NCBI GenBank assembly: GCA_965224465.1
Contig: OZ245049.1
Coordinates: forward strand, 3,390,001 to 3,422,000
Source of the DNA: Flavobacteriaceae bacterium
GTDB taxonomy: Bacteria; Bacteroidota; Bacteroidia; Flavobacteriales; Flavobacteriaceae
Length of the DNA stretch: 32,000 nucleotides
Direction: 5' to 3'
In this document: positions 12,001 to 31,891 of the stretch, piece by piece
How the letters are laid out: every line of letters starts with the position of its first letter
Numbering within the stretch: the first letter of the stretch is position 1
Notes under the pieces: generated by a model
Told to the model about the DNA's origin: nothing
The model's database searches: none
What the model saw: only the letters and a program-made list of their open reading frames with translations
Position numbers and translations under genes: made by a program

Positions 12001-12616
12001 GGTAAGTAATTCGAATACCTTTACCAATACGACGGGTATTTTTGAAAACGTAACACCAGGTACTTATTTGATAGAAGTGGAGCATAAAAATGGGTGTATT
12101 CCTTCTCAGACTTATGTAGATGTGAAGAGTGTACTTCCAATTGCAGCTACATTAGAAGAAACTTTTGTAAATACAATTACCGCCAAAGTGGAATATGGAT
12201 ACCCTCCTTATGAATACCGCTTAGATGAAGGTGACTTTGGAAATTCGAATCAATTTATTATTACCAAAACAGGTACTTACACAGTGGAAGTTCGAGATTC
12301 GAGAGGTTGTATTACCAGCGCTAAAATTGACATGGAATTTATCACAGTGTTTATTCCTAATTTCTTTACGCCGGATGGTGATGGGAAAAATGATTATTGG
12401 TATCCGCAAAAATTAATGGCATATCCAAATGTTAAAGTATCGATATACGATCGTTATTCTAGGCTGATAGAAGAGTTTAGAGGTCCTCAAATTGGTTGGG
12501 ATGGAAATCTAAAAGGAAAAGCATTGCCTTCTGGTGATTACTGGTATGTAATTGACTTGGACGGATTGCAAGGAGATAAACGAGAAATGATGGGTAATTT
12601 TACTCTTTACCGTTAA
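2..12616 (+). CDS. sprB: Giant cell-surface repeat adhesin, SprB-like. It is 5'-partial: the reading frame is open from the window edge and the gene almost certainly starts upstream.
   Basis: A single 12.6-kb ORF in frame 2 has no stop from nt 2. There is no signal peptide at the apparent N-terminus (MMCSGSLVLTAGSGY reads like the middle of a repeat). Roughly fifty ~75-85-aa Cys-bracketed repeats follow the pattern C.G...G.I.v...GG.gpY.Y......fq.s..F..L..G.Y.v.V.D..GC, which is typical of SprB repeats. The C-terminus FIPNFFTPDGDGKNDYW...GDYWYVI matches the gliding-motility/T9SS type-B CTD. A PorP/SprF-family gene lies immediately downstream, as in the sprB-sprF arrangement of Flavobacterium johnsoniae. 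Confidence 0.85.
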   Translation, partial: KFEREEVMCSGSLVLTAGSGYASYVWRNPLGQIIPGANSQTYTVNSVGIYTVEKTANAPCVDATEIITVVLNNAGFENPLITQEVNGDFRYVDAVKTCPNNGIQLAEIYLCGTESTKDIVLNVLGAEEINWQKLDSNLEGDAFADCPNVGASNTEWTTVGTGNSFSVNDAGEYRLEIVFQGGCFVRYYFNVFKSTVKPDIVSKDMFCGADGSITINNIDTNLYEFSVVPDGQLPGTFSSINTYPISTPGDYTVYYRQIGASPLACVPSIDKIHIFKRDIDVDVFPSVIQCEGAKGSIRVQVNNVSGNYFFVLKDKNGDVVGKIDDSEVNDQNFDGLDAGFYQVIVTTPECSQTINDIEIIELAPLKLTAVVSQNISCKKGKIKMSSTGGKPPYNYAIHSYMLEGDIGWTVVNPLGYQTSQIFDIPLNGAGVYKFIMVDDNLCTTVSNEVQIILEPKVAYTISKTDVKCKGSSTGTITINLPNNLKGNALSYALDDGIVGNGEYDAILADGSYDDAVFSPSNTFLNIPAGDYVLIVRIQKGNAVCYFPQDIQILESENPIAGKLNLQKDLLCGELGELVIMDFVGDTVPGGKTPYTYSIDGVLFVSSSLFSNLTEGTYYGYIKDASGCIFKTNPITLQKLDPPTELSFNNTAITCPSLTTNLTVNVTGGIGNLVYEIIAPAAAVTNNGNNNVFTGLLGGTTYTIKVTDEKNCSFDDDYTPKEITEISVTGTVDNDVKCKGTASGKATFTVTGFNGTYSYSMDAGISVTGQSTPSIVFNALTDGDHILTVTDETTNCADSYTVSISESVLASTMSLKLTPITCNKNATITTTASGGWGGFQYQLETSTGTIITAYNNNPTFINVSQNSYKVFVRDFSGCVITKDVTIASAIVPTVSITADTECYTPTGKITITAVGTGTGPLRYSLDGGNFQNTPIFANVNPGNHSVRIADKNGCEAVSNVLNVSPELSLSVQYLSIRACDNTTNVTVTPTGGDGTYRYAIVATGVIPVTADFSTTNPIVTGIGDFDVYVKDGKECAVFKTINVIKDPVLTVFVNISPILCSGDVATLTATGAGGEGPYTYRLLNAVLSSIRPTQNSPVFNGVSAGNYIVRVTDNRSCTAVSTMVVVTEPEFLSAAAGVIDLVSCSSNATAEVRIANATGGTPFPSPSPYRYSFDGGLTYGTSNAQQLPVGSHTVFVKDINGCRFPMEVEVAAALTPPDFTTGAGMSYNCSGSGIFTVSPIDPTPLFSYTYSIDNGPELIPSPGINYTFTGLTPGNHIVQMNYTSLVTPTKSVLLKESFGSGVNTAIPNIDSKYCYEPQDGTGACPGISINDGEYCVTQRVVAPFGSWLSPNDHTGTPNGRFLVINVGGTAGLNGVIYQQAVTNVIPNKNITIQLSAFNLLRTGTSGGDPSITIELADASGTVLLDASNNPIKVGTGFIPKNTGVDDWIDYTLNLNPGSYTAFNIVIRTKSTVINGNDIAIDDITAFQEPNQCSTTTEIPFTVEVGKAFNVSTSSFTDVICNGGNTGSITVQVNNFDAFGNGYRYKVDAGTWSTAQFSSPLTVSGLDAGSHTVYFEYINIDNTTDCATSITEIINQPTAVVASASITGNKTCTNTGATITASAVGGAGSYQYQLENSTGGVITAYQSSNIFTNVAIGTYNVHVKDTYNCDDVTDTQINILDPATIVFDLVETNCYAGDNNGSIAVTVTAGNGTYEFSRNGTSFYSPSPSTAVTYTFENLVSGTYTIYVRDQYGCSTSKDVTIESSLSASALLVKDIECTLPIEGQVNITANGGAGTNTYEWSNDSGATWNNSNISLGGNFTYATAGTYIFKVTDASGCEVTTNSIVLAPAIQPEFTLSPTDVQCNGATSGAIDVSIDPSKGLAPFLINVYNTTLSQDFGTQTINLPAGIYNVTVTDKKGCSNTNNITINQPNVLSATIVIVPIACVTGSVNSTGSIEVNSITGGTAQYTIDISNTFGYSDSYTTTASENHIFTDLSFGHYTIVITDANDCELIITNQNMSSPPNALDIDVSLATVDCVTGGTAIVTVGATIPGLNYRFGILTQTTVPYATVFQLADVTTPRISTFTGLTPGVMYTFVVQDLTNLCYYFKQLTVPIDSPSNITSTVTSYPVTCTGSDDGTFDFTVKNYAIGATSVDWIVKNVFTNTNYTPAISGILNVNAPAPGIGVAVTGQGLLPPGKYYILFTENNGANTGCTQASIDFEIKESPKSLEIIASLDKNANCLELGTVKALAKFGTPPYTYQIQLSTDVTPTLATWTGVNTNGVFDKTAGTYRVFVKDAFNCIQGSLDVIVGLDPSPAITATSDYTGCPSEGNFKVSINLDTAGIPPYTIQINGGAKQNIPVSFTSATPYVISGLSSGNNTFQVFDANGCSEAVAESVTIAPPLEFNVSISKLLDCLASPNAEITITGLVGSGSYTYEIVGVEAAANSQVAGTPLGLPTTIWTQANIKSEYKIIITDVNTTCSVSKSVFVQDKIQPVVDHSQGTDVTCSGADNGSISITAQDNGITPFTFAITAPLPIAATTSNGLTATFDNLQGSVTGITYTISITGANGCVTNKTITIKEPSPVTIDQIDMIQFGCATGNTPNKASITVATVSGGNGGGVGTYSRIVFENSDGLVVQDGTSNTLNILYNMTTNTYTVDMGATTPGQFTINVYDSKGCMATSTRTILPFDEINNVTVSVLVPVSCVNAGENIQINVDSSNSDPTRFEYSDDNGANYQALNQFTDLAIGIHYFLVRHKDTKCVYPISHQVKEPNIFTAKVTIVSQVNCKGTVTGEVTFELVDASYVGGYNWEIFDAKGTLTTDADDTSVDVGAEITNVPTGIRNIAAGSYYVVLTQANIPTCYNRVYFTITEPILGVSGTRTSNPVTCVGNDGAIAITPKGGWGGYQYYVGSLAPVAAGWVSTSSFTGLNTGTYQVWLRDASGCEVQLPDVDLKIPTAITATLVVANQNCLGANGAVEVTGVAGGDGVGYVYQLFRNGILLGASQSSPVFGNLTAGNYHVDITDSWGCTGTTGADIQLFEVLVPSITIDKGLDCTASPGGSFTTSVTGGSGSFNYVITFPDTSTRTNPTGVFTNLGLAGTYTIVIKDTQTNCSTIEKETLVVPSTVVLLPSSVTDVKCFGGSDGVITVNMNVPTATTNNEPVYTYQIIAGPLLVALQNNPVFADLPKGTYTIRVVSSKGCIATITEDVNEPVALSVAASATTFACTSNNLTNTVLLTAVAANGTADYVYSINGVDFKSSNTFDIVDTGVIQSITVTVKDANGCIATTLAPVVIDPLPTLISVTVTQVIAITCSNPENVLVTVVGGSGNFTYELLPIGTNTKVIVSPTQNFDLPSVGTYTFKVIDNVTGCSIVSIPYIVDSFDVISVEAVATQASQCFGDTNGALEFKVLNYTGNFSWIVTNTAGTVTLTGTGNTASNPIAVPNLIGGSFSVYVKADDPAFCDTFSNVITILSPSDALSLKLNVSHKETCDPGNDGEITAIGDYGWGTYEYQLELGATIVVAYSSGSVFSNLNAGVYTVRVKDINDCSISKDIEIKPALPIAATASANSLLCYGDLTGVVTVVATGGQGPGTYVYSLIDAGGNPSAYQSSPVFSNLVAGTYTVLVTDDLSCEVTTLPVTIVAPPIVVASVRLTTTLSCTVPGVIQVSASGGDGGPYTYSNDGVTFGTVNSFTVSPGVPTTYQYFAKDASGCISNVSNGITVHPITPLKVIIDAVNATISCNGGTTAVISAITSGGIGNYSYELLNANDVVLDGPQNSSIFTGLGAGVYKVRVNSFDCQQVSDPITLKDPKKLQLNERADFTNITCYGEVDGSITVHAVGGTGNLVYSIDQSKYVNSNIFKGLKAGMYTVTVQDENGCYINQDITIVEPILLEFDFGLIQQEKCANDKDGSIEVIITGGTAPYRTKLNADGVFVEGKMLYDNLEGGHVYVVYLEDSSGCVKNLVVKLKTPVDLEFGTIIDYGCDGNTKIVASVALQYKNEVSYIMVSNSNTFTNTTGIFENVTPGTYLIEVEHKNGCIPSQTYVDVKSVLPIAATLEETFVNTITAKVEYGYPPYEYRLDEGDFGNSNQFIITKTGTYTVEVRDSRGCITSAKIDMEFITVFIPNFFTPDGDGKNDYWYPQKLMAYPNVKVSIYDRYSRLIEEFRGPQIGWDGNLKGKALPSGDYWYVIDLDGLQGDKREMMGNFTLYR
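3881..4465 (+). other. Non-repeat module (~195 aa) embedded among the SprB-type repeats; probably a beta-sandwich, lectin/CBM-like fold.
   Basis: The repeat periodicity breaks at KESFGSGVNTAIPN...DGEYCVTQ...SPNDHTGTPNGRFLVINVGG...IQLSAFNLL...WIDYTLNL...NGNDIAIDDITAFQ. The DHTG / lvvN / GNDiaiDDI pattern resembles the sugar-binding jelly-roll inserts seen in other large Bacteroidota surface proteins. The fold assignment is from memory and has not been tested. Confidence 0.45.
12347..12613 (+). other. T9SS type-B (gliding motility-associated, CHU_C-like) C-terminal sorting domain of the giant adhesin.
   Basis: The motif string FIPNFFTPDGDGKNDYWYP...VSIYDRYSRLI...WDG...G..LPSGDYWYVI...GNFTLYR occupies the extreme C-terminus. 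Confidence 0.8.
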
Positions 12617-12632
12617 TTTTAATTAGAAAATT

Positions 12633-13568
12633 ATGATGAAGAAAATAGTGTTCTTTGTGTTAGTATCGGGTTCTCTATTGTGTAGAGCCCAGGAGTTTAG
12701 TATGCCTTTGTTGAGTCAGTATATGGCGGAAAATCCATTTGTTATTTCTCCAACATTTGCTGGAATAGGTCCCTATTTTCAACTCCGCGCAAGTGGATTG
12801 GAACAATGGGTTGGAGTGAAGGACGCTCCAAGTACCCAATCAGTTTCTCTAGATGGACGTTTTGGAGACGTGAATGGTTTTGGGATTCTTTTGTTTAATG
12901 ACAGAAATGGAAATACCCGACAATATGGTGGACATATTACCTATGCACATCACCTCACGTTAAATGAGTATCGAAATCAGTTTGTATCCTTTGGGATGTC
13001 CTACCGGTTTACCCAATTTAAAATAGATGTTTCTGATTTTAATGGGAATGACCCTTCTGTTCTCGGAGATAGATCAACACTTAATTCCAATTTTGATGTT
13101 GGGATGTTGTATCGATTTGAAAAGTTTTACATGAGTTTAAATGTTACTAATATTTTAGATAAAAGTGCCAGAGCCTTTGCGGATGGTGAACCTCTAAAAT
13201 TACGAAGTTATTCCATTTATACAGGTTTCAAATTTGATAGAAATCCATACCATAAATTTGAGGTTTCTTTATTTAGTCGTTACTTTGAAAGTGATGCACG
13301 TTCCAATACAGATCTTAATTTTAAGTATAGAAAGCTATATGGAGATGATTATTTTTGGTTAGGCGCCAGTCTCCGTATGATAAATGATTTGGATTTTCAA
13401 CCTGTTAGTGTAACACCAATGGCAGGGTTTAATCACAAACAATTTTATGTTTCTTATGGATTCGAAATGAATCTAGGAGAAATTATTCAGTACAATGTAG
13501 GGACTCATTTAATTACCCTTGGGGTAGATTTTCTATACAATCCTAGTAGTAAAAAATGTACGCGTTAA
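12633..13568 (+). CDS. sprF: Type IX secretion system membrane protein, PorP/SprF family.
   Basis: 311 aa with a signal peptide (MMKKIVFFVLVSGSLLCRAQE). The N-terminal LLSQYMAENPFVISPTFAG matches the family hallmark (SQY..NP...NPA.AG). The rest has beta-barrel-like alternating composition. It starts 16 nt after the adhesin with a type-B CTD. Confidence 0.85.
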   Translation: MMKKIVFFVLVSGSLLCRAQEFSMPLLSQYMAENPFVISPTFAGIGPYFQLRASGLEQWVGVKDAPSTQSVSLDGRFGDVNGFGILLFNDRNGNTRQYGGHITYAHHLTLNEYRNQFVSFGMSYRFTQFKIDVSDFNGNDPSVLGDRSTLNSNFDVGMLYRFEKFYMSLNVTNILDKSARAFADGEPLKLRSYSIYTGFKFDRNPYHKFEVSLFSRYFESDARSNTDLNFKYRKLYGDDYFWLGASLRMINDLDFQPVSVTPMAGFNHKQFYVSYGFEMNLGEIIQYNVGTHLITLGVDFLYNPSSKKCTR

Positions 13569-13617: not shown

Positions 13618-13663
13618 GTTGCTGTTCTTCTTGTTTTGACAAGAAGAACAGCAACTTTTTTTT
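13618..13663 (+). terminator. Rho-independent terminator after sprF.
   Basis: A perfect 16-bp stem (gttgctgttcttcttg / caagaagaacagcaac) with a 6-nt loop is followed by T8. Confidence 0.85.
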
Positions 13664-13708
13664 GTAATTAAAATTTGAAGGGAGTTAGGATGTATCCTCG
13701 TACACGTA

Positions 13709-13744
13709 ATACCAAATACAGTTCCAAGTGACTGTTTAGAAATG
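13709..13744. repeat. Copy 1 of a ~36-nt intergenic repeat (ataccaaatacaNttccaagtgNNNgtttagaaatg); copy 2 is at 22911-22946.
   Basis: By direct comparison the two sites differ at only about 4 positions. Both are intergenic. Confidence 0.6.
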
Positions 13745-22782: not shown

Positions 22783-22910
22783 GTCTAGGGAATACAAAGA
22801 TTGCGATCCGTTTTGTCTCGACAAAAATGGTGTATTTGCGATTTATATCGCTTAGTTGAATTCAGCCAGTATGGAAGTTTGTTTCTTTTTAAAGAGTGAA
22901 AACTTGAGTT

Positions 22911-22946
22911 ATACCAAATACATTTCCAAGTGGCGGTTTAGAAATG
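22911..22946. repeat. Copy 2 of the ~36-nt intergenic repeat seen at 13709-13744.
   Basis: ataccaaatacatttccaagtggcggtttagaaatg compared with ataccaaatacagttccaagtgactgtttagaaatg. Confidence 0.6.
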
Positions 22947-23055
22947 TAGGCTTCATACCAAAAAACGCAAAATTTCCGTTAGGATATTTAAATGAAATTA
23001 TATTGTAAGTTCTATAATCCTTTTAAGATTATAATTGGACACCTTGTTATTATAG

Positions 23056-24059
23056 AACTCTTTTTGAAGACATCCATTCCTCTAAAACAGTTACTTTCAG
23101 CTTTAATTTCAGTAAGTTTTTGTTAGGCAGCTGATTCTAGGTATAGCCCGTAAATACATGTTTTATGTACTCCTAACCGTTTCATAATAAGCGCACCGTA
23201 TCCATAGCAATTATTATTTATTTTGTTAGGTCAAAAAAAGACTGCCTAGTAAGAGCCTTGCTTCATTCATGCTTTTAAAATCAGTAGAATAGTAATCAAT
23301 CCTTTATAATAACTATGTAAACAAAGGTCAATAACCTCTGGGCAAGCCCACGAGGCATGATAAAGAAAAAAACCTTAATCATTTCGATGCAAGCATCGGG
23401 GAATTAAACCCACTAGTGGGATTAAAATACAGAAACACACGTGCGTATAACATTATTTTATATATTTGCCTTACGTTTTAAAAATAAATACGCCTTAATA
23501 TTAAGCCCACCCTGCATTGTGAACTAAATGGATATGCCATCATGTTTACAATTGCTATTGTGAGGATATGTGTATTACAAAGCATTGACACACGCAAACA
23601 CACAACATAGAATAACAAAACAACATGGTAAAAGCAATATTAATAATAGATGGAAAAGAAGTAAACGTACGTTGGTTTACCATCAATTTTAATCAAGGAG
23701 CAAACCCTAACGGGAGACCCTCACAGAAACCCATATTTATAGGTTTTAAACTAATTATAGAAACTAGAAAAGACCTAAATCTTACTGACTGGGCATTTTC
23801 CTCTAGACAAACAAAACAGATAGTATTACATCTTAATTCCGTTATTTTGGGAGGGAAAACAAGAAAAATATTTTTCTATGACTGTCATCTTGTAAACTGG
23901 AAAACCAATTTTTCTTCTACAGGCTCAGATCCAATGACGGAAACTTTAGAAATCACCTGTGCTGGTGTTGAAGATTCTAATTCGTCTGGTGTGTATTCTG
24001 CCTCTTGGAGGGTTACGTATCCAGAACTAGAAGTCGAACCAACAATTAGAGATGATAAT
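23056..24059 (+). repeat. Conserved 5' block, copy 1: ~570-bp upstream region plus Hcp-like codons 1-145. It is homologous to 28187-29120.
   Basis: Manual alignment of the coding part finds about 20 mismatches and no indels in 435 nt. The upstream part is clearly homologous but has indels, and copy 1 is about 70 bp longer. Homology stops abruptly after ...gatgataat (24059 / 29120). Confidence 0.85.
23461..23468 (+). promoter_or_regulatory. Candidate -7 promoter element (TATATTTG, consensus TAnnTTTG) for cassette 1.
   Basis: The motif lies about 157 nt upstream of the Hcp-like ATG. It is conserved at the equivalent position of cassette 2 (28516-28523). Confidence 0.4.
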
Positions 24060-24314
24060 ATAGAAAAAACTATTATAGAATCTTTTTTTGAAGATAAAAA
24101 AACGATGCAAAAGATTGATTTTTTAAAACCTAATATGAATGTTAATTTAGTCTTGAAGCTAAAAAACATGGAAAACACATCTATTGACATAGATTTATCA
24201 GAATATAAAGTAGGTTTTGAGCATAATGGCAATAAATTAGACGATGATATTTTAAAAGAGATAGATATTTCAAGTGATACTAAAAAAATAAATTTAAAAA
24301 CTACTAAAAAATAA
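23625..24314 (+). CDS. tssD: TssD/Hcp-like tube protein (Bacteroidota T6SSiii type) with an ~84-aa C-terminal extension, copy 1.
   Basis: The first ~140 aa follow the pattern I remember for Bacteroidota TssD. It runs: short N-terminus, L.IDGKE..V..f...F.Q....nGRPS, then ....E...D..L..W, then F.D...V.....F...G..PM...L.I. Canonical TssD is about 130-150 aa, whereas this protein is 229 aa. There is no signal peptide. Confidence 0.6.
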   Translation: MVKAILIIDGKEVNVRWFTINFNQGANPNGRPSQKPIFIGFKLIIETRKDLNLTDWAFSSRQTKQIVLHLNSVILGGKTRKIFFYDCHLVNWKTNFSSTGSDPMTETLEITCAGVEDSNSSGVYSASWRVTYPELEVEPTIRDDNIEKTIIESFFEDKKTMQKIDFLKPNMNVNLVLKLKNMENTSIDIDLSEYKVGFEHNGNKLDDDILKEIDISSDTKKINLKTTKK

Positions 24315-24319
24315 TAATT

Positions 24320-25549
24320 ATGGCTATTATAACAGAAGTAGGAAACCCAAGTAACTCTTATTCTTTTAAACCATTAGAAGTATGGGAATTTACTCCAATT
24401 GTACTTTTAAATAAAGAACCTACGGATTACGATAGAATAGAAGACATAATACTTCTTTACAATGTAGATGAAAAGGTTGAATTATCTGATAAACTAAGTA
24501 CTTCTATAAGTAGTAAATATACACTTATGGAGTTTACAACAGAATTAGATACACTAACATTAAGTTTTATTGTAAAGAATGGAACTACTGACCAATTTTA
24601 CGACGAAGACGGATATATTAAGCCTCAATTAACGTTAATTGATAATAATAATAATAATAAAGACACTAAAAATACGATTGAAATCACTAAAAATGAAAGT
24701 TTTTTAATAGATTACGATAAAAAAGAAACAACAGAAATTGAAGTCGATATTTCTATAAAATCAAAAAATGATATATCTTTTTATGTAGATTTTTATGCTA
24801 ATGATGATAAAAAGTATTTTGATGTTGAGGGAGCTTATAAAAATGTATTTTGTGGTAGAGTAAAAATAATTTACAATACTGATAATGAATGGCAGTTTTC
24901 TTTAAATGAAATTGAAAAGATTAAAACTTATGCTATTACTAATAATGTAGATTATAGAAATTCTTTTAAGAAAGATCGTAAAGATAGAAAATACACTGAT
25001 TACCACCATTGTACCGATACTCATAAAAATATTGTGTACCAACTATTAAATAATCCTACCGATTTATATCTTGGAGAAAATCAAACAAAAAACAGAAAGA
25101 CTCCCAGAGATTATGAAAAAGCAGGGGAATCAACAACTCATGGAGTTAGGAATAGACTAATAGCATCAACTTATGCTGAATCTTCAAAAAACTTTACTGT
25201 TATTGATATTAATAATAACGAAGTTTTAAATAGTGGACAAGCAGGGAATACAGATGTGAAATTAAGTAAGTTTAAAGAAAGCCCTGTTGTATATATGAAA
25301 AATAAATGCCCTAAAGATGGCTATTATATATTTATTGGAGCATATAATGATGATTATCATTCTTTTACTATTGTAGCTAATAAGCGTGGGGAGAATATTA
25401 ATTTCATCTTTATAGACCAAGTAGTTGGAATAAGTAGTTTCACTGAAAGTAATTTTGAAAAATCTAAGTTATTAAGGAACATTGATAGTTATTCTTTTGA
25501 CTACCCTATGAAATTAGAATTATTTCAATTAAGAAATAAAAAGAAATAA
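24320..25549 (+). CDS. Hypothetical protein; candidate T6SS cargo toxin (effector 1).
   Basis: A 409-aa ORF starts 5 nt after the Hcp-like stop. It has no signal peptide or T9SS CTD and is Asn/Lys-rich. I recognise no catalytic motif. A lipoprotein gene follows after 2 nt, which is typical effector-immunity coupling. Confidence 0.75.
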   Translation: MAIITEVGNPSNSYSFKPLEVWEFTPIVLLNKEPTDYDRIEDIILLYNVDEKVELSDKLSTSISSKYTLMEFTTELDTLTLSFIVKNGTTDQFYDEDGYIKPQLTLIDNNNNNKDTKNTIEITKNESFLIDYDKKETTEIEVDISIKSKNDISFYVDFYANDDKKYFDVEGAYKNVFCGRVKIIYNTDNEWQFSLNEIEKIKTYAITNNVDYRNSFKKDRKDRKYTDYHHCTDTHKNIVYQLLNNPTDLYLGENQTKNRKTPRDYEKAGESTTHGVRNRLIASTYAESSKNFTVIDINNNEVLNSGQAGNTDVKLSKFKESPVVYMKNKCPKDGYYIFIGAYNDDYHSFTIVANKRGENINFIFIDQVVGISSFTESNFEKSKLLRNIDSYSFDYPMKLELFQLRNKKK

Positions 25550-25551
25550 AA

Positions 25552-26175
25552 ATGAAAAAATATTTTTTAATATTACTCGTCCTATTATTTATATTTAATT
25601 GTAATGGTTCTAAACAAGATAGTAAAGTAAACCTTGATAAGGTTAATTCTAAAATCACTTTAAATAAAGTGATTTTAGATACGTTAAAAGTTAAAAAGAA
25701 ACTATTAACAATAAATAATTTTAACCTTTTATTGTCTAAAATAAAAAACGTAAAAAATGTAGGAGAAAAGCATAAAGACTGGATGTCTAATAAAGCAAGG
25801 ACTTTAGATTCACTTTTTCTACTTGATAATCGAGAATTTTCTGTAAAAACAATAAGTTATGAGTACAAAAAAAATGTAATATTTTATGTTCATGATTTAA
25901 AACATATAAACGATACTATAAGTATAAAGCCTTTTTTAGAAAATGCACAAGGAAAAACTAGTGAAGGTTACTTAGGGGAACGTGTATTAATTTTTGCAAT
26001 GAAAAACAATAAAGATGCAAATTTTATTGATATACCTGTAAATTGGAACTATGGCGAGTTAGAGGATGAGCTTCTTGAAATATTATATAAAAATATAGAT
26101 AGTGATGTAATAATTTGTAGAAATATAGACACCTGTATATATATTAGGGATTTACGAAAAATGAAGTCTGAATAA
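25552..26175 (+). CDS. Lipoprotein; candidate cognate immunity protein for effector 1.
   Basis: 207 aa with an SPII-type signal and lipobox (MKKYFLILLVLLFIFN-C). It is translationally coupled to the upstream ORF through a 2-nt gap. Confidence 0.75.
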   Translation: MKKYFLILLVLLFIFNCNGSKQDSKVNLDKVNSKITLNKVILDTLKVKKKLLTINNFNLLLSKIKNVKNVGEKHKDWMSNKARTLDSLFLLDNREFSVKTISYEYKKNVIFYVHDLKHINDTISIKPFLENAQGKTSEGYLGERVLIFAMKNNKDANFIDIPVNWNYGELEDELLEILYKNIDSDVIICRNIDTCIYIRDLRKMKSE

Positions 26176-26303: not shown

Positions 26304-26930
26304 ATGAAAAAAATCATAACATTATTAGTAGGTTTTTGGGTTGCTATATCTTTTTCTCAAGAAAAAAAAATCCCATACCCAAAAATTATTAAACCGATTA
26401 TTTCTTATAACTATAAAGTAAGCATATTAAATGGACTTGAGTTTTGTACATATAACGATGGGGATTATTTAAGAGGTCATTATAATGTTGAAGTTTACAT
26501 TTTAGATAAGACCATTTCAGATACTACGATTATTGATAATGGACTAGAAAGAAGCACTTTACGGTATGATTTAGCATATAGTAGATACAAAGGAACTAAT
26601 ATATCTTTACAAGGCAAGTTTTTTAAAGGCTACAAAAACGGTTTCTGGAAAACTACATATAAAAACAAATTAGTAAAAACCATAAATTATAATCATGGTT
26701 TAGTTATTGGTAGATACAGAGTTTACAATTTAAAAGGAAATATACTATATAAAACTACATTTGGTACTAAAGGTAATGGTAGGTTTGAAGATTATTATTA
26801 CAAAACTGGTCTTTTAAAACAAGAAGGCAATTACAAAAACGGAAAAAAACAAGGAGAATGGCGCGATTATGATGAACAGGGAAATACTAAAAAAATAACT
26901 TATTACGAAAATGGAACTCCAGTAAAATAA
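26304..26930 (+). CDS. YwqK-family/MORN-variant repeat protein with a signal peptide (immunity-type protein), copy 1.
   Basis: It has a signal peptide (MKKIITLLVGFWVAISFSQ). The C-terminal half carries MORN_2-like repeats (G.f..yY.tGlLkqEGnYkNGkkqGeW.dYdeqGn..k.tyYenG), as in proteins annotated as YwqK-family antitoxins. Confidence 0.7.
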   Translation: MKKIITLLVGFWVAISFSQEKKIPYPKIIKPIISYNYKVSILNGLEFCTYNDGDYLRGHYNVEVYILDKTISDTTIIDNGLERSTLRYDLAYSRYKGTNISLQGKFFKGYKNGFWKTTYKNKLVKTINYNHGLVIGRYRVYNLKGNILYKTTFGTKGNGRFEDYYYKTGLLKQEGNYKNGKKQGEWRDYDEQGNTKKITYYENGTPVK

Positions 26931-27064
26931 GGTCCTACAATTAATAACCAAGGGTTTATACGATACTTAGGTTTCAATGTGAACGCCTTAGTAATTAAAG
27001 GTTTAAGTTTGCGAAAAAAATAATTCTCCTAATAACTTTTTTAATCTATTGTGTTACGCTTAAA
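26592..27064 (+). repeat. Conserved 3' block, copy 1: the C-terminal ~112 codons of the YwqK-like gene plus ~130 bp downstream. It is homologous to 31009-31481.
   Basis: The offset is constant at 4417 nt and I saw no indels. There are 4 aa differences across the shared protein part. Homology ends at the left end of the IS30 element. Confidence 0.85.
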
Positions 27065-28179
27065 TTCAACTAATAAACGCAACTTTTCGATTTGATTCTA
27101 TGATGGTTATATTTTCAAAACAGAAAAGTAGGAAAACCTACCTTTCTTGTCTTGATGGATATGTATCTTACGGTCTCAAATCTCGAAAAAAGAAGTTGTA
27201 TGAAACACATCACCCAAGCGCAAAGATACACAATTTGTTGCATGTTAAAACAAGGTTATAAACAGGTTGAGATAGCAGCTGCTATAGGAAAAGACAAGTC
27301 TGTTATTAGCAAAGAGATTAAGCGTAATTCAGACAAAAGAAATGGAGTTTACAAGCATGAATTAGCCCAAAAAAAGTATGCTAAACGTCATAAAGAAAAG
27401 CCTAAAAGAAAACGCTTTACAGAAGATATTCAACAAGCAATAGAGTTGTTATTGCGAGACGATTATAGTCCTGAGCAAGTAGTTGGTGTCCTAAAAAAAC
27501 AAGGTAAAGAAACGGTGTCTATTGAGCGTATATATCAGCATATTAGGGAAGACAAGAGGAATGATGGTGATTTACATACACACCTTCGCAGACAGGGAAG
27601 GAGATATAGAAAACGTGGCTCATCAAAGGATTCTAGAGGGGTTATAAAGAATCGTATTAGTATAGAACAACGCCCTGAAGTTGTTGAACAAAGAAATCGA
27701 TTTGGAGATTTAGAGGTCGATTTAATCATAGGTAAAAACCATAATCAAGCCATACTTACCGTAAATGATAGAGCTTCTGGAATGCTTAAAATGAAAAAAG
27801 TAAGCTCTAAAGAAGCAGTTGTTGTCACTAAAGCTATCAATGAAATATTAGAAGACTGGAAGCCTTATCTACATACTATAACAGCTGATAATGGAAAAGA
27901 ATTTGCAGGCCATGAGCAGGTTGCAGAAAATTTATGTATTGATTACTTTTTTGCGCATCCATATCACTCTTGGGAAAGAGGATCTAACGAAAATTTAAAT
28001 GGTTTGATTAGACAATATTTTGCCAAAGGAAGTGACTTTACAAACCTAACAGATCAAAGAATCAAAGAGGTAGAAACAAAATTAAATAACAGACCTAGGA
28101 AGAGACATAAATATCAAAACCCTATATTTGTAATGGAACAATTATTATTTAACTAAAAGTTGCGTTTGTGACTTGAATT
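27063..28179 (+). mobile_element. IS30-family insertion sequence (~1.1 kb) with imperfect ~25-bp terminal inverted repeats.
   Basis: IR-L at 27063-27087 is aattcaactaataaacgcaactttt. IR-R at 28155-28179 has the reverse complement aattcaagtcacaaacgcaactttt, giving 22/25 matches. A single transposase ORF lies between them. I see no matching target-site duplication. Confidence 0.8.
27200..28156 (+). CDS. IS30-family DDE transposase.
   Basis: The N-terminal HTH (MKHITQAQRYTICCMLKQGY...) is typical of IS30 transposases. The DDE region includes DLEVDLIIG, ITADNGKEF and SWERGSNENLNGLIRQYF. The ATG at 27200 is preferred over the upstream TTG/ATG at 27152-27157. Confidence 0.9.
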   Translation: MKHITQAQRYTICCMLKQGYKQVEIAAAIGKDKSVISKEIKRNSDKRNGVYKHELAQKKYAKRHKEKPKRKRFTEDIQQAIELLLRDDYSPEQVVGVLKKQGKETVSIERIYQHIREDKRNDGDLHTHLRRQGRRYRKRGSSKDSRGVIKNRISIEQRPEVVEQRNRFGDLEVDLIIGKNHNQAILTVNDRASGMLKMKKVSSKEAVVVTKAINEILEDWKPYLHTITADNGKEFAGHEQVAENLCIDYFFAHPYHSWERGSNENLNGLIRQYFAKGSDFTNLTDQRIKEVETKLNNRPRKRHKYQNPIFVMEQLLFN

Positions 28180-28186
28180 CAGCTAA

Positions 28187-29120
28187 AACTCTTTTTGATG
28201 ACATCCATTACTCTAGAATATTCAGTTTTATCTTTAATTTCAGTAAGTTTTTGTTGTTTTGGCATGAAGCTCATTCTAGGTAGCCCCAAAAATACATCTA
28301 TTAAGTACTCATAACCGTTGTGTCATAAGCGCGCTATATCCATAGCAATTATTGTTTATTTTATTAGGTTAGAAAAGGACTACCTAGTTTATAGCCTTGT
28401 TCAATTCTTTCTTTTGAAAAACAGAAGAACAGGAATCTACCCTTTAGGACAAGCATATAAACAAAATTAATCAGAATAAAAACACAATAACACGTGTGCG
28501 TATAACATTTTTATATATATTTGACCTACGCTTAAAAACGGACACACTCTATCAACAAGCCCCCACCTACATTGTAAACTAAATGGATATGCCTTCTAGT
28601 TTAGAGTTGCTATTGTGAGAATATTACTATTACAAAGCATTGACAGACTCAAACAACTTAATACAACATAGAATAAAAGAACAATATGGTAAAAGCAACA
28701 TTAATAATAGATGGAAAAGAAGTAAACGTACGTTGGTTTACCATCAATTTTAATCAAGGAGCAAATCCTAACGGCAGACCCTCACAAATCCCCGTATTTA
28801 TAGGCTTTAAGCTAATTATAGAAGCTAGAAAAGACCTAAACCTAACTGACTGGGCCTTTTCCTCCAGACAAACAAAAGAGATAGTATTACATCTTAATTC
28901 CGTTATTTTGGGAGGCAAAACAAGAAAAATATTTTTCTATGACTGTCATCTTGTAAACTGGAAAACCAATTTTTCTTCTACAGGCTCAGATCCAATGACG
29001 GAAACTTTAGAAATTACTTGTGCTGGTGTTGAAGATTCTAATTCGTCTGGTGTGTATTCTGCATCTTGGAGAGTTACGTATCCAGAACTAGAAGTCGAAC
29101 CAACAATTAGAGATGATAAT
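28187..29120 (+). repeat. Conserved 5' block, copy 2 (homologous to 23056-24059).
   Basis: See copy 1. This copy begins within a few nt of the IS30 right end. Confidence 0.85.
28516..28523 (+). promoter_or_regulatory. Candidate -7 promoter element (TATATTTG) for cassette 2.
   Basis: It is the positional homologue of 23461-23468 and lies about 163 nt upstream of the ATG. Confidence 0.4.
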
Positions 29121-29375
29121 GAACCGAATTTTCTAGGATACTTTTTTGAAAATAAAAACGGAGAACCTATAGAACAAGAAAAAATAGAACCCAACCAAAA
29201 AGTAACTTTAGTTATAAAAACTGAAAATTCTGATATTGAAGTAATAACCATAAATTTGAATGACGATAGATTAAATTTTAAACACAATAATAAGGTGTTA
29301 GAAAACGACACTTTAGTAGGCGTAAGAATAACAGGAGAAGAAACAAGAATTGATTTAATTAGTATAATGGAATAA
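28686..29375 (+). CDS. tssD: TssD/Hcp-like tube protein with an ~84-aa C-terminal extension, copy 2.
   Basis: Residues 1-145 differ from copy 1 at only 5 positions. Residues 146-229 are alignable with copy 1 but highly diverged. Both proteins are 229 aa. Confidence 0.6.
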   Translation: MVKATLIIDGKEVNVRWFTINFNQGANPNGRPSQIPVFIGFKLIIEARKDLNLTDWAFSSRQTKEIVLHLNSVILGGKTRKIFFYDCHLVNWKTNFSSTGSDPMTETLEITCAGVEDSNSSGVYSASWRVTYPELEVEPTIRDDNEPNFLGYFFENKNGEPIEQEKIEPNQKVTLVIKTENSDIEVITINLNDDRLNFKHNNKVLENDTLVGVRITGEETRIDLISIME

Positions 29376-29376
29376 T

Positions 29377-30717
29377 ATGGCTGGTAAAACAAATAGAGGA
29401 ATAGCCCGTTTTGAGTCTGGAAGAGGAAATACCATGGAAATAATTTTTCCAACAGTAGTAAGTGATTTAAAATTTAACGTTCAATTTAGAAGACTAGACA
29501 GTTATAAAGGCGAGTTCGGTTTCGATTGGATGCGAGATAATTATAAAATAATATCTAAAGATTATGATAAATTAAAAAAGGAATACACACCGACTAAAAT
29601 TCATGAAGAAGATTATTTTGTGCCTTGGTTAAGTATGTTTCCTAACCAAGAGGGGGTAAAATTAAAGTTAGTGATTACAGAAATAGAAGGTACTGTAAAA
29701 GATAACGACATTATAAAACTCTCATCTAAAGACGGCATACATTTTGAACCTAACGAGCTAAAAGTATCTGAAGCCAATGGTAAAGAAATAACTATAATTT
29801 GTGAATCGCTTTTAAGCAATGATATTACCATTTCATTACTAGATAAAAACGATGAAGAGGTTGGTAAACTAAATATTTTTAAAAATGCAAATCACGAGCA
29901 ACTACATTTTAACATTACTCCTGTTCGAATTTTGAGAGGAGTATCACAACAAAGTGATAAAGATGTTATTGAGAATATGATAGATCACTCTCAAGGTTTT
30001 GGAGATAAAAGCAAAGATATAAATGGTGACTTACAAAACCTACAAGACTATTTAAATACTCAATCTTTAAATCAAGCTTTATTACAATGTAGTATTGGTA
30101 AGGTTTATGATGTTATTATAGATGAAGATAAATGGATAACTAATGACTTAATTATAGATGAAGGGTGTATATTTAAAGATGTAGAAATTTTAGAGAAATT
30201 GGATAAGGAATTTAAAAAACAACACCCTAAACAAGCTAAAAAAAGAGGTTTAGTTTTATTCTTATCTCCTTTAAGAAAAGAAGGTGCTGGAGGAGAAGGA
30301 GAAATTAGTGAGATAGATGCAAAAAGGTTAGTGATTTATCAATCAAATTTATGGGATAAAGAAAGTTTTGCCCACGAAATCTCACACGTTTTAGGATTGA
30401 CACATTCATTTCAGAAAAAGATGTCTACAGAGGATGTTTTTATTATGAATAGATTTATTAAGAAAGTAGACGATGATCTTAATTATATGATTAAAAATAA
30501 TGACCCTCAAAATCAAATTGCAGATGAATGGAGTACACGTAAAGATAGATATAAAGAATATAGAGTGTATTTAAACACCTATTATAAAAACCCTTATCTT
30601 TTTGAAAAAACAAAAACTGAAAATATCATGGATTATGAAAATATCAGAAAATCTTTTTGGAAATACCAATGGGAATCAATGCAAGATGATATAGTTAAGT
30701 TTTATAATGTTAAATAA
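29377..30717 (+). CDS. Zinc metallopeptidase-like protein (metzincin-type HExxHxxGxxH); candidate T6SS cargo toxin (effector 2).
   Basis: A 446-aa ORF starts 1 nt after the Hcp-like stop and has no signal peptide. The motif FAHEISHVLGLTHSF (H-E-x-x-H-x-x-G-x-x-H) lies at nt 30373-30405. A possible Met-turn, ENIMDY, has its Met at 30628-30630, reminiscent of M43/reprolysin-like metzincins. Confidence 0.7.
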   Translation: MAGKTNRGIARFESGRGNTMEIIFPTVVSDLKFNVQFRRLDSYKGEFGFDWMRDNYKIISKDYDKLKKEYTPTKIHEEDYFVPWLSMFPNQEGVKLKLVITEIEGTVKDNDIIKLSSKDGIHFEPNELKVSEANGKEITIICESLLSNDITISLLDKNDEEVGKLNIFKNANHEQLHFNITPVRILRGVSQQSDKDVIENMIDHSQGFGDKSKDINGDLQNLQDYLNTQSLNQALLQCSIGKVYDVIIDEDKWITNDLIIDEGCIFKDVEILEKLDKEFKKQHPKQAKKRGLVLFLSPLRKEGAGGEGEISEIDAKRLVIYQSNLWDKESFAHEISHVLGLTHSFQKKMSTEDVFIMNRFIKKVDDDLNYMIKNNDPQNQIADEWSTRKDRYKEYRVYLNTYYKNPYLFEKTKTENIMDYENIRKSFWKYQWESMQDDIVKFYNVK

Positions 30718-30720
30718 GCA

Positions 30721-31347
30721 ATGAAAAAAACAATAACCTTAATACTATTAGCACTTTATATTAATTCCTTTGGTCAAAAACTAATGGTAAAACCGCCTAT
30801 TCCTATTACTCCAATAAGTTCTTTAGAATTAAAAACAAGTATTAAATTAGGTAAAGAGTTATCTTTTTTAATTAAAGAAAAGAAAACAATTAGAAATGGA
30901 GAGTATATAGTAATGGTTAGGAAAAAAAAAGAAAAAAAATCCATCCCTTATAAGTATATAAAGAATAATGAGGGAAATGACACTCCAAATTATGGACTTA
31001 AAGGAATAGGAACTAATATATATTTACAAGGCAAGTTTTTTAAAGGCTATAAAAATGGTTTCTGGAAAACTACATATAAAAACAAATTAGTAAAAACCAT
31101 AAATTATAATCATGGTTTAGTTATTGGTAGATACAGAGTTTACAATTTAAAAGGAAATATACTATATAAAACTACATTTGGTACTAAAGGTAATGGTAGG
31201 TTTGAAGATTATTATTACAAAACTGGTCTTTTAAAACAAGAAGGTAATTTCAGAAACGGAAAAAAACAAGGAGAATGGTGCGATTATGATGAACAGGGAA
31301 ATACTAAAAAAATAACTTATTACGAAAATGGAACTCCAGTAAAATAA
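30721..31347 (+). CDS. YwqK-family/MORN-variant repeat protein with a signal peptide, copy 2; candidate immunity protein for effector 2.
   Basis: It starts 3 nt after the effector 2 stop and has a signal peptide (MKKTITLILLALYINSFGQ). The N-terminal ~96 aa are unrelated in detail to copy 1. The C-terminal ~112 aa are nearly identical to copy 1. Confidence 0.7.
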   Translation: MKKTITLILLALYINSFGQKLMVKPPIPITPISSLELKTSIKLGKELSFLIKEKKTIRNGEYIVMVRKKKEKKSIPYKYIKNNEGNDTPNYGLKGIGTNIYLQGKFFKGYKNGFWKTTYKNKLVKTINYNHGLVIGRYRVYNLKGNILYKTTFGTKGNGRFEDYYYKTGLLKQEGNFRNGKKQGEWCDYDEQGNTKKITYYENGTPVK

Positions 31348-31481
31348 GGTCCTGCAGCTAATAACCAATGGTATATACGACGCTTAGGTTTAAATGTGAA
31401 CGCCTTAGTAATTAAAGGTTTAAGTTTATGGAGAAAATAACTCTCCTAATAACTTTTTTAATCTATTGTGTTATGATTAAA
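31009..31481 (+). repeat. Conserved 3' block, copy 2 (homologous to 26592-27064).
   Basis: See copy 1. Confidence 0.85.
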
Positions 31482-31800
31482 GCGCAGAGTACTGATACAA
31501 TAAAATCAGAAGACAATATAGTAAGCGCTAAACGTTATCAACTCTATGTTGTTTAAAAGGGCTCTTTAAAAAGGGAAATAGCTGTTTTTTGGAATAGTAA
31601 AAAAGAAGATTACAGTTATGTAAGCAGTGGATTAATTATATGTTATAGAAATCTTCATAAGTTTAAACAAAGAGGAATGGAAAATTTCATGGATTACACA
31701 AGTGGTAAGAAAAGGACTTGAAGCAACAAGAAAAGTAATCAACAGATGGAATAACAGCAAAGATTATCAATGGGAATTATTACCTATTTCGGTTGTGTAA
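31428..31800 (+). pseudogene. Possible degraded gene for a small signal-peptide protein.
   Basis: ATG 31428 opens MEKITLLITFLIYCVMIKAQS... (signal-peptide-like) and hits an in-frame TAA at 31554. The same frame stays open for about 54 more codons to a TGA at 31719. A +1 frame then continues from about 31714 to a TAA at 31800. The cassette 1 counterpart lacks the ATG and is cut by IS30. Confidence 0.35.
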
Positions 31801-31831: not shown

Positions 31832-31891
31832 TTTTAAAATAGTTCGATTTTCTCTTCATAAGGCTGCTTTAAAAATCGAACTATTTTAAAA
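31832..31891. repeat. Perfect 20-bp inverted repeat with a 20-nt spacer.
   Basis: ttttaaaatagttcgatttt (31832-31851) and its exact reverse complement aaaatcgaactattttaaaa (31872-31891). Confidence 0.8.

Follow-up and report, generated by a model that had tools for sequence, protein, structure and literature searches.

An exchangeable C-terminal β-sandwich on Hcp tube proteins of marine Flavobacteriaceae as a candidate docking domain for N-terminally tagged effectors

What is the role of a C-terminal extension that differs between two tube proteins whose remaining sequence is nearly the same? To our knowledge, no general secretion signal is known for type VI secretion systems (T6SS), and how their cargo is chosen is still an open problem. 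The question is raised by a 32,000-nucleotide (nt) stretch of a Flavobacteriaceae genome (GenBank assembly GCA_965224465.1, contig OZ245049.1, positions 3,390,001 to 3,422,000; hereafter the window, numbered from its first letter), in which two parallel cassettes on the forward strand fill the right-hand 9 kb. Each cassette opens with a gene for an Hcp-like (TssD) protein, Hcp1 or Hcp2, which is followed by a candidate effector gene and immunity-like open reading frames (ORFs; Table 1). An earlier note, made from the letters alone, had proposed that residues 146 to 229 of both Hcp proteins form a specificity domain that switches together with the downstream toxin. Our analyses lead us to favor, with moderate confidence, a modified form of this idea, in which the extension is a cargo-docking domain whose ligand is a short N-terminal tag of the effector, and in which both belong to a mobile cassette that recombines at the linker behind the Hcp core.

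Both Hcp proteins comprise 229 residues, as the earlier note had counted, and both match the Pfam family TssD (PF17642, gathering cut-off 25.8 bits) over residues 2 to 128 (Hcp1, 85.4 bits, E = 3.7e-24; Hcp2, 84.8 bits, E = 5.8e-24). The best Foldseek matches of the AlphaFold2 (AF2) model of the Hcp1 core were the Bacteroidota Hcp structures 8gra, 6bdc, and 7yw0, with target-normalized TM-scores of 0.82 to 0.84. Over their whole length the two proteins are 73% identical by BLASTP. Codons 1 to 145 differ by 5 nonsynonymous and 14 synonymous changes (95.4% nt identity; nonsynonymous divergence [dN] 0.016, synonymous divergence [dS] 0.168), and the last 82 residues are 30% identical; the five core differences and the roughly one-third identity of the extensions thus stand as first described, and the shared strings FFE.K,.PN..V.LV.K..N, I.I.L, and F.HN...L..D.L are visible in the BLASTP alignment. 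When identity was followed in 30-nt windows, it stayed at 0.90 to 1.00 up to 24033-24062, fell to 0.70 at 24063 and to 0.40 at 24093, and remained at 0.3 to 0.6 from there on into the start of the next gene. Because DNA identity collapses at 24063-24095, the switch point coincides with the place where the variable effector cassette begins, in agreement with the earlier note. Similarity between the cassettes resumes only at 26591-27064 and 31008-31481 (the 3′ half of the 208-aa genes), where they are 95 to 97% identical. The core dS of 0.17 argues against very recent gene conversion as the cause of the core identity and points to purifying selection or an older homogenization rather than a very recent copy. 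Each cassette, in the window and in related loci, has one hcp, and paired adjacent hcp genes were not seen; a heteromer with a distant major Hcp is still conceivable.

To describe the extension itself, we combined modeling with profile searches. The AF2 model of full-length Hcp1, built from a 44-sequence alignment, places a separate sandwich at residues 149 to 227 with a predicted local distance difference test (pLDDT) score above 90, and the extension modeled alone gave six strands (pLDDT 93, predicted TM-score 0.80). On these models the extension, which had been described as beta-rich, is an independently folded six-strand β-sandwich on a disordered linker. Since both extensions match a profile built from 44 relatives (E = 6e-25 and 6e-26), their homology is not a product of chance; L, F, I, and L occupy the positions that hardly vary. 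The Hcp1 extension (class A) is ∼50% identical to the extensions of P0007 (locus L054) and P0022 (L055), and the Hcp2 extension (class B) is 50 to 67% identical to those of P0036 (L056), P0013 (L057), and P0002. No match to the extension was found in Pfam or NCBIfam, and its sequence profile found no relative in the PDB. Foldseek returned nothing significant from the PDB or BFVD (best PDB E = 0.2, the nonsignificant PDB matches being generic sandwiches such as Wzt CBD, MG domains, and RhoGDI), and the full Hcp1 model matched through its Hcp core only. Neither Foldseek nor Pfam detected a transthyretin-like fold or sequence family. Searches of Pfam, NCBIfam, and the PDB gave no toxin match for the 84 residues, which also hold no conserved catalytic motif, so that the small sandwich does not look like a toxin, in agreement with the earlier note. 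By these fold and sequence comparisons, the extension is an undescribed and unannotated domain family.

Relatives were gathered from several sources. A protein search returned 64, mostly TssD proteins of 227 to 237 aa that carry this extension and come from Olleya, Tenacibaculum, Tamlana, Psychroserpens, and others, and including several paralogues that share a 5.24-Mb contig with Hcp2; the source-genome paralogues P0002, P0004, P0006, and P0009 were compared as protein sequences only. A scan of one genome per species yielded 50 loci, mainly from marine Flavobacteriaceae and one from an Ancylomarina metagenome-assembled genome (MAG), to which further look-ups added 11 loci, only 3 of them from a metagenome scan. 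Three architectures sit on one core family. Core and extension may be followed within a few nt by a separate ORF of 268 to 767 aa, as seen at 27 loci of the genome scan and at 32 of the enlarged set; the core may be fused in-frame to a C-terminal part of 400 to 550 residues, with ORFs of ∼190 aa behind it (11 loci); or an extension-less Hcp of ∼155 aa may precede a separate ORF. Across loci, the downstream ORFs show weak, mostly subthreshold signatures of CHAP+LysM, GIY-YIG, lipase-like α/β hydrolase, HExxH peptidase, and OmpA-like domains, and this diversity of antibacterial signatures is the pattern expected of T6SS effectors.

We next asked which part of the effector the extension follows. 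Global identity of whole downstream proteins related to that of the extension only weakly and uninformatively (Spearman 0.13). Mantel tests on segment-wise normalized local scores from 27 loci related the extension to effector residues 1 to 35 with r = 0.74, to residues 36 to 150 with r = 0.67, to residues 151 to 260 with r = 0.63, to the last 150 effector residues with r = 0.58, and to the next (immunity) gene with r = 0.58 (p ≤ 0.0005 for each). The correlation of the extension with the Hcp core was 0.00, and the core correlated with no cassette segment above 0.08 (0.04 with the tag). At the level of classes, compared over 32 loci by the adjusted Rand index (ARI), extension and tag agreed at 0.71 (p = 0.0002) and extension and effector body at 0.45, with values of 0.05 for core and tag and −0.03 for core and extension. 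Among 471 pairs of loci whose effector bodies are unrelated, 18 had both the extension class and the tag class in common, 18 the extension class only, 8 the tag class only, and 427 neither, corresponding to an odds ratio of about 50. All 18 extension-only pairs came from one super-class (cluster 4), which is split in two sub-branches.

Individual loci show the same relationship. In L002 and L019 the extensions are 82% identical, and the effectors are 82% identical but over residues 1 to 257 only; in L006 and L028 the corresponding values are 83% and 86%, the latter over residues 1 to 153 only. The tag G[IV]A[RS]F[ED][SC]G[RK]GNTM.I.FP is common to cassette 2 (W2), L056, L057, and L001, despite the fact that the L001 and L057 effector bodies are unrelated to effector 2. 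Likewise, L011, L034, and the L017 family have tags of the FRhxFEDGET type and related extensions in common but three bodies unrelated to one another, and the L054 and L055 loci, which carry class-A extensions, have effectors with the tag ITEVGN.SNSYSF. Conversely, effector 2 has its metallopeptidase part in common with the L011 and L034 effectors (24 to 26% identity), and here the extensions are just 25 to 28% identical. Judged from these comparisons, the co-varying partner of the extension is the N-terminal tag or region of the effector and not the toxin domain. The idea of a cargo-specificity domain that tracks the effector across genomes accordingly holds for the first ∼35 effector residues and fails for the toxin: one extension class does precede unrelated toxin bodies, a pairing that the earlier note had counted against itself, whereas no such promiscuity was found toward tags.

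Natural fusions place the extension and the tag at one junction. Effector 2 residues 30 to 446 are 67% identical, end to end, to residues 154 to 583 of L025, in which about 12 linker residues join the Hcp core to the toxin and a ∼190-aa immunity homologue follows directly; L048 is a second fusion of this kind. The L041 effector (d1) is, from about residue 25 onward, 54% identical to the L029 fusion. Both L025 and L029 are devoid of extension and tag, and the extension profile gave no match to any fused Hcp. The split genes have two insertions at exactly this point, the 85-residue extension ahead of the stop codon and a tag of 25 to 30 residues behind the new start. By the Rosetta-stone argument, the existence of natural fusions indicates that core and effector work as one unit, and because the fusions have neither element, extension and tag appear to stand in for the peptide bond. 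The isolate YR2-618 (L002-L005, L010, L021, L024, L025, and L048) has both fused and split forms. A different split type was also observed. Among extension-less Hcps of ∼135 to 156 aa, a short strand-like tail (e.g., QLKIKTKIS) closes those of L013, L039, and L047, and that of L040 stops soon after the core; the downstream ORFs of L013, L040, and L047 start with MP.FIPLGIP.FNG, and the same effector family is fused in-frame in L036 (FGITIKHVADKKTFVPLGIPAFSG). Comparison of L013, L040, and L047 with L036 suggests that Hcp–toxin fusions have been split more than once, and not always with an extension. Programmed readthrough or frameshifting as a means of joining Hcp and effector was rejected because of the gaps between Hcp stop and effector start, which lie mostly between −11 and +12 nt elsewhere and vary in length and frame between loci.

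The extension is not restricted to these Hcp proteins. In a search of 1.84 billion representatives, an extension-only profile matched 381 clusters (at 50% identity) with E values of 1e-3 or better and 286 at 1e-10 or better. In the best 147 new matches the domain was nearly always at the extreme C terminus, followed by a median of 2 residues and by more than 15 in only 6 cases. Its carriers include other TssD subfamilies (P0065, with two copies, P0099, P0108, P0130, and P0142), the Tox-PAAR-like protein P0070 (PF13665, E = 9e-35; two domain copies), and the DUF4280 proteins P0165 and P0201. Both PAAR-like/DUF4280 loci that we examined (L058 and L059) have an effector-like ORF downstream. In L059 this ORF overlaps the end of the DUF4280–extension gene and begins with KIKIEQANNPENMVMIDSLNFYRFLPKIEI, the same tag type as in effector 1 (IITEVGNPSNSYSFKPLEVWEFTPIVLL), and the best matches of this tag are class-A loci. 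In L058, the ORF after the PAAR-like gene with two extensions contains the motif GVFFDGTMND and by eye resembles Tle1/DUF2235, a Tle1-type lipase; the terminal extension and the tag are most like those of the lipase-like L017 family, the tag with weak scores. Because three kinds of expelled T6SS parts carry the domain, and because a tagged ORF comes after it at every locus examined, a docking module fits much better than an Hcp-specific structural feature. Tandem copies of the domain also end P0066 and P0067, behind an N-terminal part of ∼300 aa, and P0069, behind ∼125 aa, with no Pfam match in those parts, as well as P0072, a signal-peptide protein with leucine-rich repeats (LRR) and Ig domains; these are either additional carriers or uses of the domain outside the T6SS. 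A leader, VLL.K..LP.EP.YNG[SG]D, stands before the first domain in P0071, P0078, P0080, P0091, and P0123 (in P0123, leader and domain are followed by M23 peptidase and phage lysozyme domains) and may be another loading motif.

Core and extension also differ in their histories. The paralogues of the source genome have cores that are 89 to 96% identical and extensions that are 22 to 51% identical. Across genomes, extensions of one class are 80 to 95% identical on cores that are 70 to 74% identical, as in P0009/P0030/P0038 and P0004/P0025/P0028, and for several pairs the core dS (1.1 to 1.4) is about twice that of the extension (0.58 to 0.78). The core therefore appears to follow the genome and the extension to follow the mobile cassette, and, as read from the sequences, the junction between the two is the disordered linker. 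Within classes, dN/dS is about 0.06 to 0.17 for the extension and about 0.05 to 0.2 for the tag, values that reflect purifying selection; thus neither is a decaying remnant. A distinct C-terminal domain, class D (PKILK.EWKDEEGNSIKEAEISSNSQLFLKVKD...), was seen on P0009, P0030, P0038 (L012), and P0057. It has no match to the extension profile (L012 does not appear among the profile hits), is 94 to 99% identical among P0009, P0030, and P0038 on cores that are 71 to 87% identical, and is 62% identical to its counterpart on P0057, the core of which is 47% identical. One carrier being from an Ancylomarina MAG, the transfer of class D appears to cross orders. As read from the sequences, class D resembles the first sandwich of the L029 and L031 fusions.

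These observations suggest a model in which the tube protein would consist of three parts, a near-invariant, genome-typical Hcp core, a flexible linker of ∼15 residues, and an exchangeable sandwich of 85 residues. The sandwich would bind the N-terminal tag, about 25 to 35 residues long, of the effector made from the next, translationally coupled ORF, and the effector, tethered noncovalently to the Hcp ring, would exit the cell with the tube. That the two bind physically is what we infer. The contact would be made by β-augmentation, which we favor because the tags, as read from sequence, show strand-turn-strand patterns (e.g., FRLKFEDGETKTVKAKIK) suggestive of a β-hairpin and because a six-strand sandwich could accept edge strands. 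The effectors range from 30 to 85 kDa, and as six extensions and six effectors of even 45 to 50 kDa cannot lie inside the ring, co-assembly with a major, extension-less Hcp seems likely, by analogy with what has been shown for the minor Hcps of Bacteroides fragilis (PMC13213661, PMC13035841). Extension, tag, toxin, and immunity gene would move as one cassette, which would join the resident core by recombination at the linker, and toxin and immunity modules would be swapped further behind a given extension–tag pair. A stronger version, which we hold only tentatively, is that extension and tag form a portable pair, an incomplete sandwich on Hcp, PAAR-like, or DUF4280 proteins that is completed by, or clamps, a cargo N-terminal β-hairpin, much as in donor-strand complementation.

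Several observations count against docking. No T6SS core genes were found in the window or in the inspected flanks, nor beside a 156-aa extension-less Hcp. At the thresholds used the correspondence is not one-to-one, since two tag classes fall within cluster 4 and two extension classes have one tag class in common. The similarity of the L059 extension to class A is near, and not at, the top of the ranking. Moreover, the domain lies near the N terminus of the single-chain effectors P0123 (M23 peptidase and lysozyme) and P0091 (DUF6402) and occurs in the secreted LRR protein P0072, where it could not dock a separate downstream protein in the same way. Finally, extension and tag are only 1 to 12 nt apart, and strong co-variation that weakens with distance is what genetic linkage by itself predicts and what the smoothly declining Mantel coefficients of 0.74, 0.67, 0.63, and 0.58 show. 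Because extension and tag adjoin in the DNA, co-variation cannot by itself separate linkage from function. The extension could then be a passive spacer or decoration, the breakpoints falling in the linker and the effector being recognized elsewhere, by the Hcp lumen or another adaptor, and the extension-like sandwiches that are internal modules of single-chain effectors would suit such a role. The case for docking is carried by the fusions, the independence from the carrier, and selection. Linkage does not explain why extension and tag are restricted to split forms and both missing from fused homologues, why a shared tag type recurs behind the domain on another carrier (L059), why the extension and tag classes still agree between effectors that are otherwise unrelated, or why both elements are under purifying selection. 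The core, being essentially invariant between the cassettes, cannot encode the specificity. Classical cargo of the Hcp lumen is limited in size, and the effectors here, at 270 to 770 aa, are larger than such cargo. We therefore regard linkage without function as unlikely.

The coexistence of fused and split forms of the same effectors raises another possibility, that the extension is the first sandwich of an ancestral fused effector, left behind by fission, and that it serves to mark the ring for a particular place (tube tip or terminator, contact with VgrG), to block further stacking of Hcp, or to bind the surface of the target cell. The resemblance of the class-D domain of P0009 (L012) to the first sandwich of the L029/L031 fusions is in keeping with such an origin, as is the split type without extension (a 155-aa Hcp and a separate ORF versus the L036 fusion), and the phage lambda tube protein gpV provides a precedent for C-terminal Ig-like decoration. 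Yet a position marker or surface binder need not change class with the effector tag, the extension is not simply the first domain of the fused Hcps, as its profile matches none of them, and a role in tube position is at odds with its presence not only on tube subunits but also on PAAR-like and DUF4280 tips; we consider this origin quite unlikely as the full account. Alternatively, the extension might chiefly stabilize the effector or hold it inactive inside the producer, in the manner of Eag/DUF1795 chaperones, without conferring loading specificity. The tight translational coupling, which suggests co-translational assembly, would suit such a function, for which the inhibition of VgrG-bound Tle1 is a precedent (PMC10433429). 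However, the element that co-varies is a short tag common to unrelated toxins and not a catalytic domain, and fused homologues do without the extension. A mainly protective function thus seems very improbable, although it overlaps with docking and does not exclude it.

Table 1. Coordinates of the cassettes and their parts in the window
Feature	Coordinates	Strand	Remarks
Cassette 1 (Hcp1; 409-aa, 207-aa, and 208-aa ORFs)	23625-24314; 24320-25549; 25552-26175; 26304-26930	+	
Cassette 2 (Hcp2; 446-aa and 208-aa ORFs)	28686-29375; 29377-30717; 30721-31347	+	
Conserved upstream noncoding region	23053-23624; counterpart 28184-28685	+	blastn 78% and 88% in two blocks
Hcp1 (TssD) core, residues 1-128	23625-24008	+	PF17642; AF2 Hcp fold, pLDDT ~88
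Linker, residues 129-145	24009-24059	+	Predicted disordered, pLDDT <50 at 129-143; identity break just after
Hcp1 extension, class A, residues 146-229 and stop	24060-24314	+	Predicted six-strand β-sandwich (AF2)
Effector 1 tag, ~30 residues (MAIITEVGNPSNSYSFKPLEVWEFTPIVLL)	24320-24409	+	Same tag type after class-A extensions L054, L055
Effector 1, 409 aa, candidate	24320-25549	+	Starts 5 nt after Hcp1 stop
Putative immunity lipoprotein for effector 1, 207 aa	25552-26175	+	Position and lipobox-like N terminus (MKKYFLILLVLLFIFNC)
208-aa protein of the family following effector-2-type toxins	26304-26930	+	47-52% identical to L025_d1, L048_d2, L048_d3
IS30-like transposase ORF	27152-28156		Separates the cassettes; HTH_38 and weak rve match (Pfam)
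Hcp2 core and linker, residues 1-145	28686-29120	+	PF17642; 5/145 residues differ from Hcp1
Hcp2 extension, class B, residues 146-229 and stop	29121-29375	+	Extension profile E 6e-26
Effector 2 tag, residues 1-29 (MAGKTNRGIARFESGRGNTMEIIFPTVVS)	29377-29463	+	Missing from Hcp-fused homologue L025
Effector 2, 446 aa, candidate HExxH metallopeptidase-like C-terminal part	29377-30717	+	Starts 1 nt after Hcp2 stop
Putative immunity protein for effector 2, 208 aa	30721-31347	+	54% identical to L025_d1; signal-peptide-like N terminus

The N-terminal 170 to 210 residues of effector 1 are 33 to 36% identical to the L054 and L055 effectors (d1), the C-terminal part is unrelated to them, and no Pfam or PDB match was found. 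Effector 2 gave weak matches to Reprolysin_5, Peptidase_M10, and TIGR03952 around AHEISHVLGLTH, all below threshold, and no PDB relative. The 207-aa ORF is a putative immunity gene for effector 1, as suggested by its position directly after the effector and its signal-peptide- or lipobox-like N terminus. The two 208-aa ORFs are paralogues, both 43 to 54% identical to ORFs after effector-2-type toxins of L025 and L048; because its relatives follow such toxins, the copy in cassette 1 is probably an orphan immunity gene against a cassette-2-type toxin. Downstream of cassette 2, three out-of-ORF fragments resemble the N terminus of the immunity-like ORF L038_d2 (31428-31538), the C-terminal end of effector-2-type toxins (31566-31712), and the C-terminal part of an L029/L041-type toxin (31693-31791). 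The fragments within 31428-31791 look like displaced toxin and immunity remnants of the kind found in polymorphic toxin loci.

The cassettes have a G+C content of 0.25 to 0.30, down from ∼0.33 to 0.40. The IS30-like transposase between them may have had a role in cassette duplication or insertion. The noncoding homology upstream of the two hcp genes extends over ∼500 nt, with an unalignable gap of ∼95 nt at 23326-23420, and may represent a promoter or regulatory region or a recombination substrate. The remainder of the window is ordinary Flavobacteriia chromosome, with genes for SprF, an HflX-like GTPase, SufE, and others, including sugar-kinase-like and amidophosphoribosyltransferase-like ORFs assigned by eye. 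A SprB-repeat adhesin of 4198 aa (20-13568), which bears a CHU_C type IX signal and begins at or before the window edge, is followed by a PorP/SprF gene; this pair is ordinary gliding-motility and type IX secretion system cargo. A 39-nt direct repeat, 90% identical, is found at 13706-13744 and 22908-22946, both intergenic, and three short palindromes lie at 13618-13655, 25648-25679, and 31832-31891.

How does this arrangement compare with known systems? In B. fragilis, paired minor Hcps (Hcp2–Hcp3 or Hcp1–Hcp2 heterohexamers) co-segregate with V1 effectors, and cryo-electron microscopy from 2026 located cargo specificity in hypervariable inner-surface residues of their cores (PMC13035841, PMC13213661); Hcp2–Hcp3 recognizes an N-terminal antiparallel β-pair of the effectors (PMC13035841), behind which toxin domains are exchangeable. 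Common to both cases are a Bacteroidota T6SS of subtype iii (T6SSiii; a putative one for our cassettes), hcp directly upstream of the effector, and co-segregation of Hcp variants with effector type, which is true here for the extension only. In contrast, the cores of our cassettes are 96% identical and statistically unrelated to cargo, all variation lies in an appended C-terminal domain, each cassette has one hcp, and the domain is also on PAAR-like and DUF4280 proteins. With 5 differences in 145 core residues between cassettes with unrelated effectors, inner-surface core specificity of the B. fragilis kind was not found here. The "evolved" Hcp-ET proteins of Ma et al. (2017, PMC5711352), as far as they are described where cited in PMC13213661, carry C-terminal toxin domains. 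Like them, ours are Hcps with a C-terminal extension in a toxin–immunity cassette, and true fusions occur in relatives (L025, L029, and others). Unlike them, the extension is an 85-residue sandwich without toxin signature, and the toxin is a separate polypeptide with an extra N-terminal tag; nor is hcp directly followed by the immunity gene, since the next ORF is the 409- or 446-aa effector and immunity-like ORFs come after it. The contrast to Hcp-ET that the earlier note had drawn therefore applies to the extension and the neighboring gene and has to be softened for the family, in which fused and split versions coexist.

The closest functional analogue, by our comparison, is the transthyretin-like (TTR) adaptor found on VgrG and PAAR proteins: the C-terminal TTR domain of enteroaggregative Escherichia coli VgrG1 binds Tle1, and TTR is also present on some PAAR proteins (PMC10433429). 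There too, a small β-sandwich forms the C terminus of an expelled T6SS structural protein with the cargo gene nearby and recruits its cognate effector noncovalently, as we propose for the extension. Here, the carrier is the tube protein (in addition to PAAR-like and DUF4280 proteins) of a putative T6SSiii, and the proposed partner is a short N-terminal tag. The cassettes also recall polymorphic toxins such as Rhs, CDI, and MAF, with a conserved 5′ part (upstream region and Hcp core) ahead of a variable 3′ part, remnants of toxin ends and orphan immunity downstream, and an insertion sequence between the cassettes; they differ in that the variable part begins with a docking domain, as we propose, and is divided into two polypeptides. 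We found no description in the literature of a C-terminal docking domain on Hcp, PAAR-like, or DUF4280 proteins in Bacteroidota. As carrier-appended cargo adaptors are known, what the sequences suggest as new is the domain family on a new carrier, the tube protein, together with a candidate short N-terminal loading tag.

The data thus suggest that marine Flavobacteriaceae and their relatives have arrived at a different, simpler solution to cargo choice, in which a constant tube protein is equipped with an exchangeable docking domain that reads a tag on the effector. If this is true, an unannotated domain family of at least 381 clusters at 50% identity would flag T6SS carriers, the adjacent tagged ORFs would flag many unknown effectors, and the travel with Hcp of effectors far too large for its lumen would be explained by a minimal two-part pair that could also serve engineered cargo loading. 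Should the more tentative portable form of the pair prove correct as well, it would constitute a genuine, transplantable T6SS secretion signal in Bacteroidota, with specificity classes by which a single machine could sort many large effectors, and it could serve for the loading of foreign proteins.

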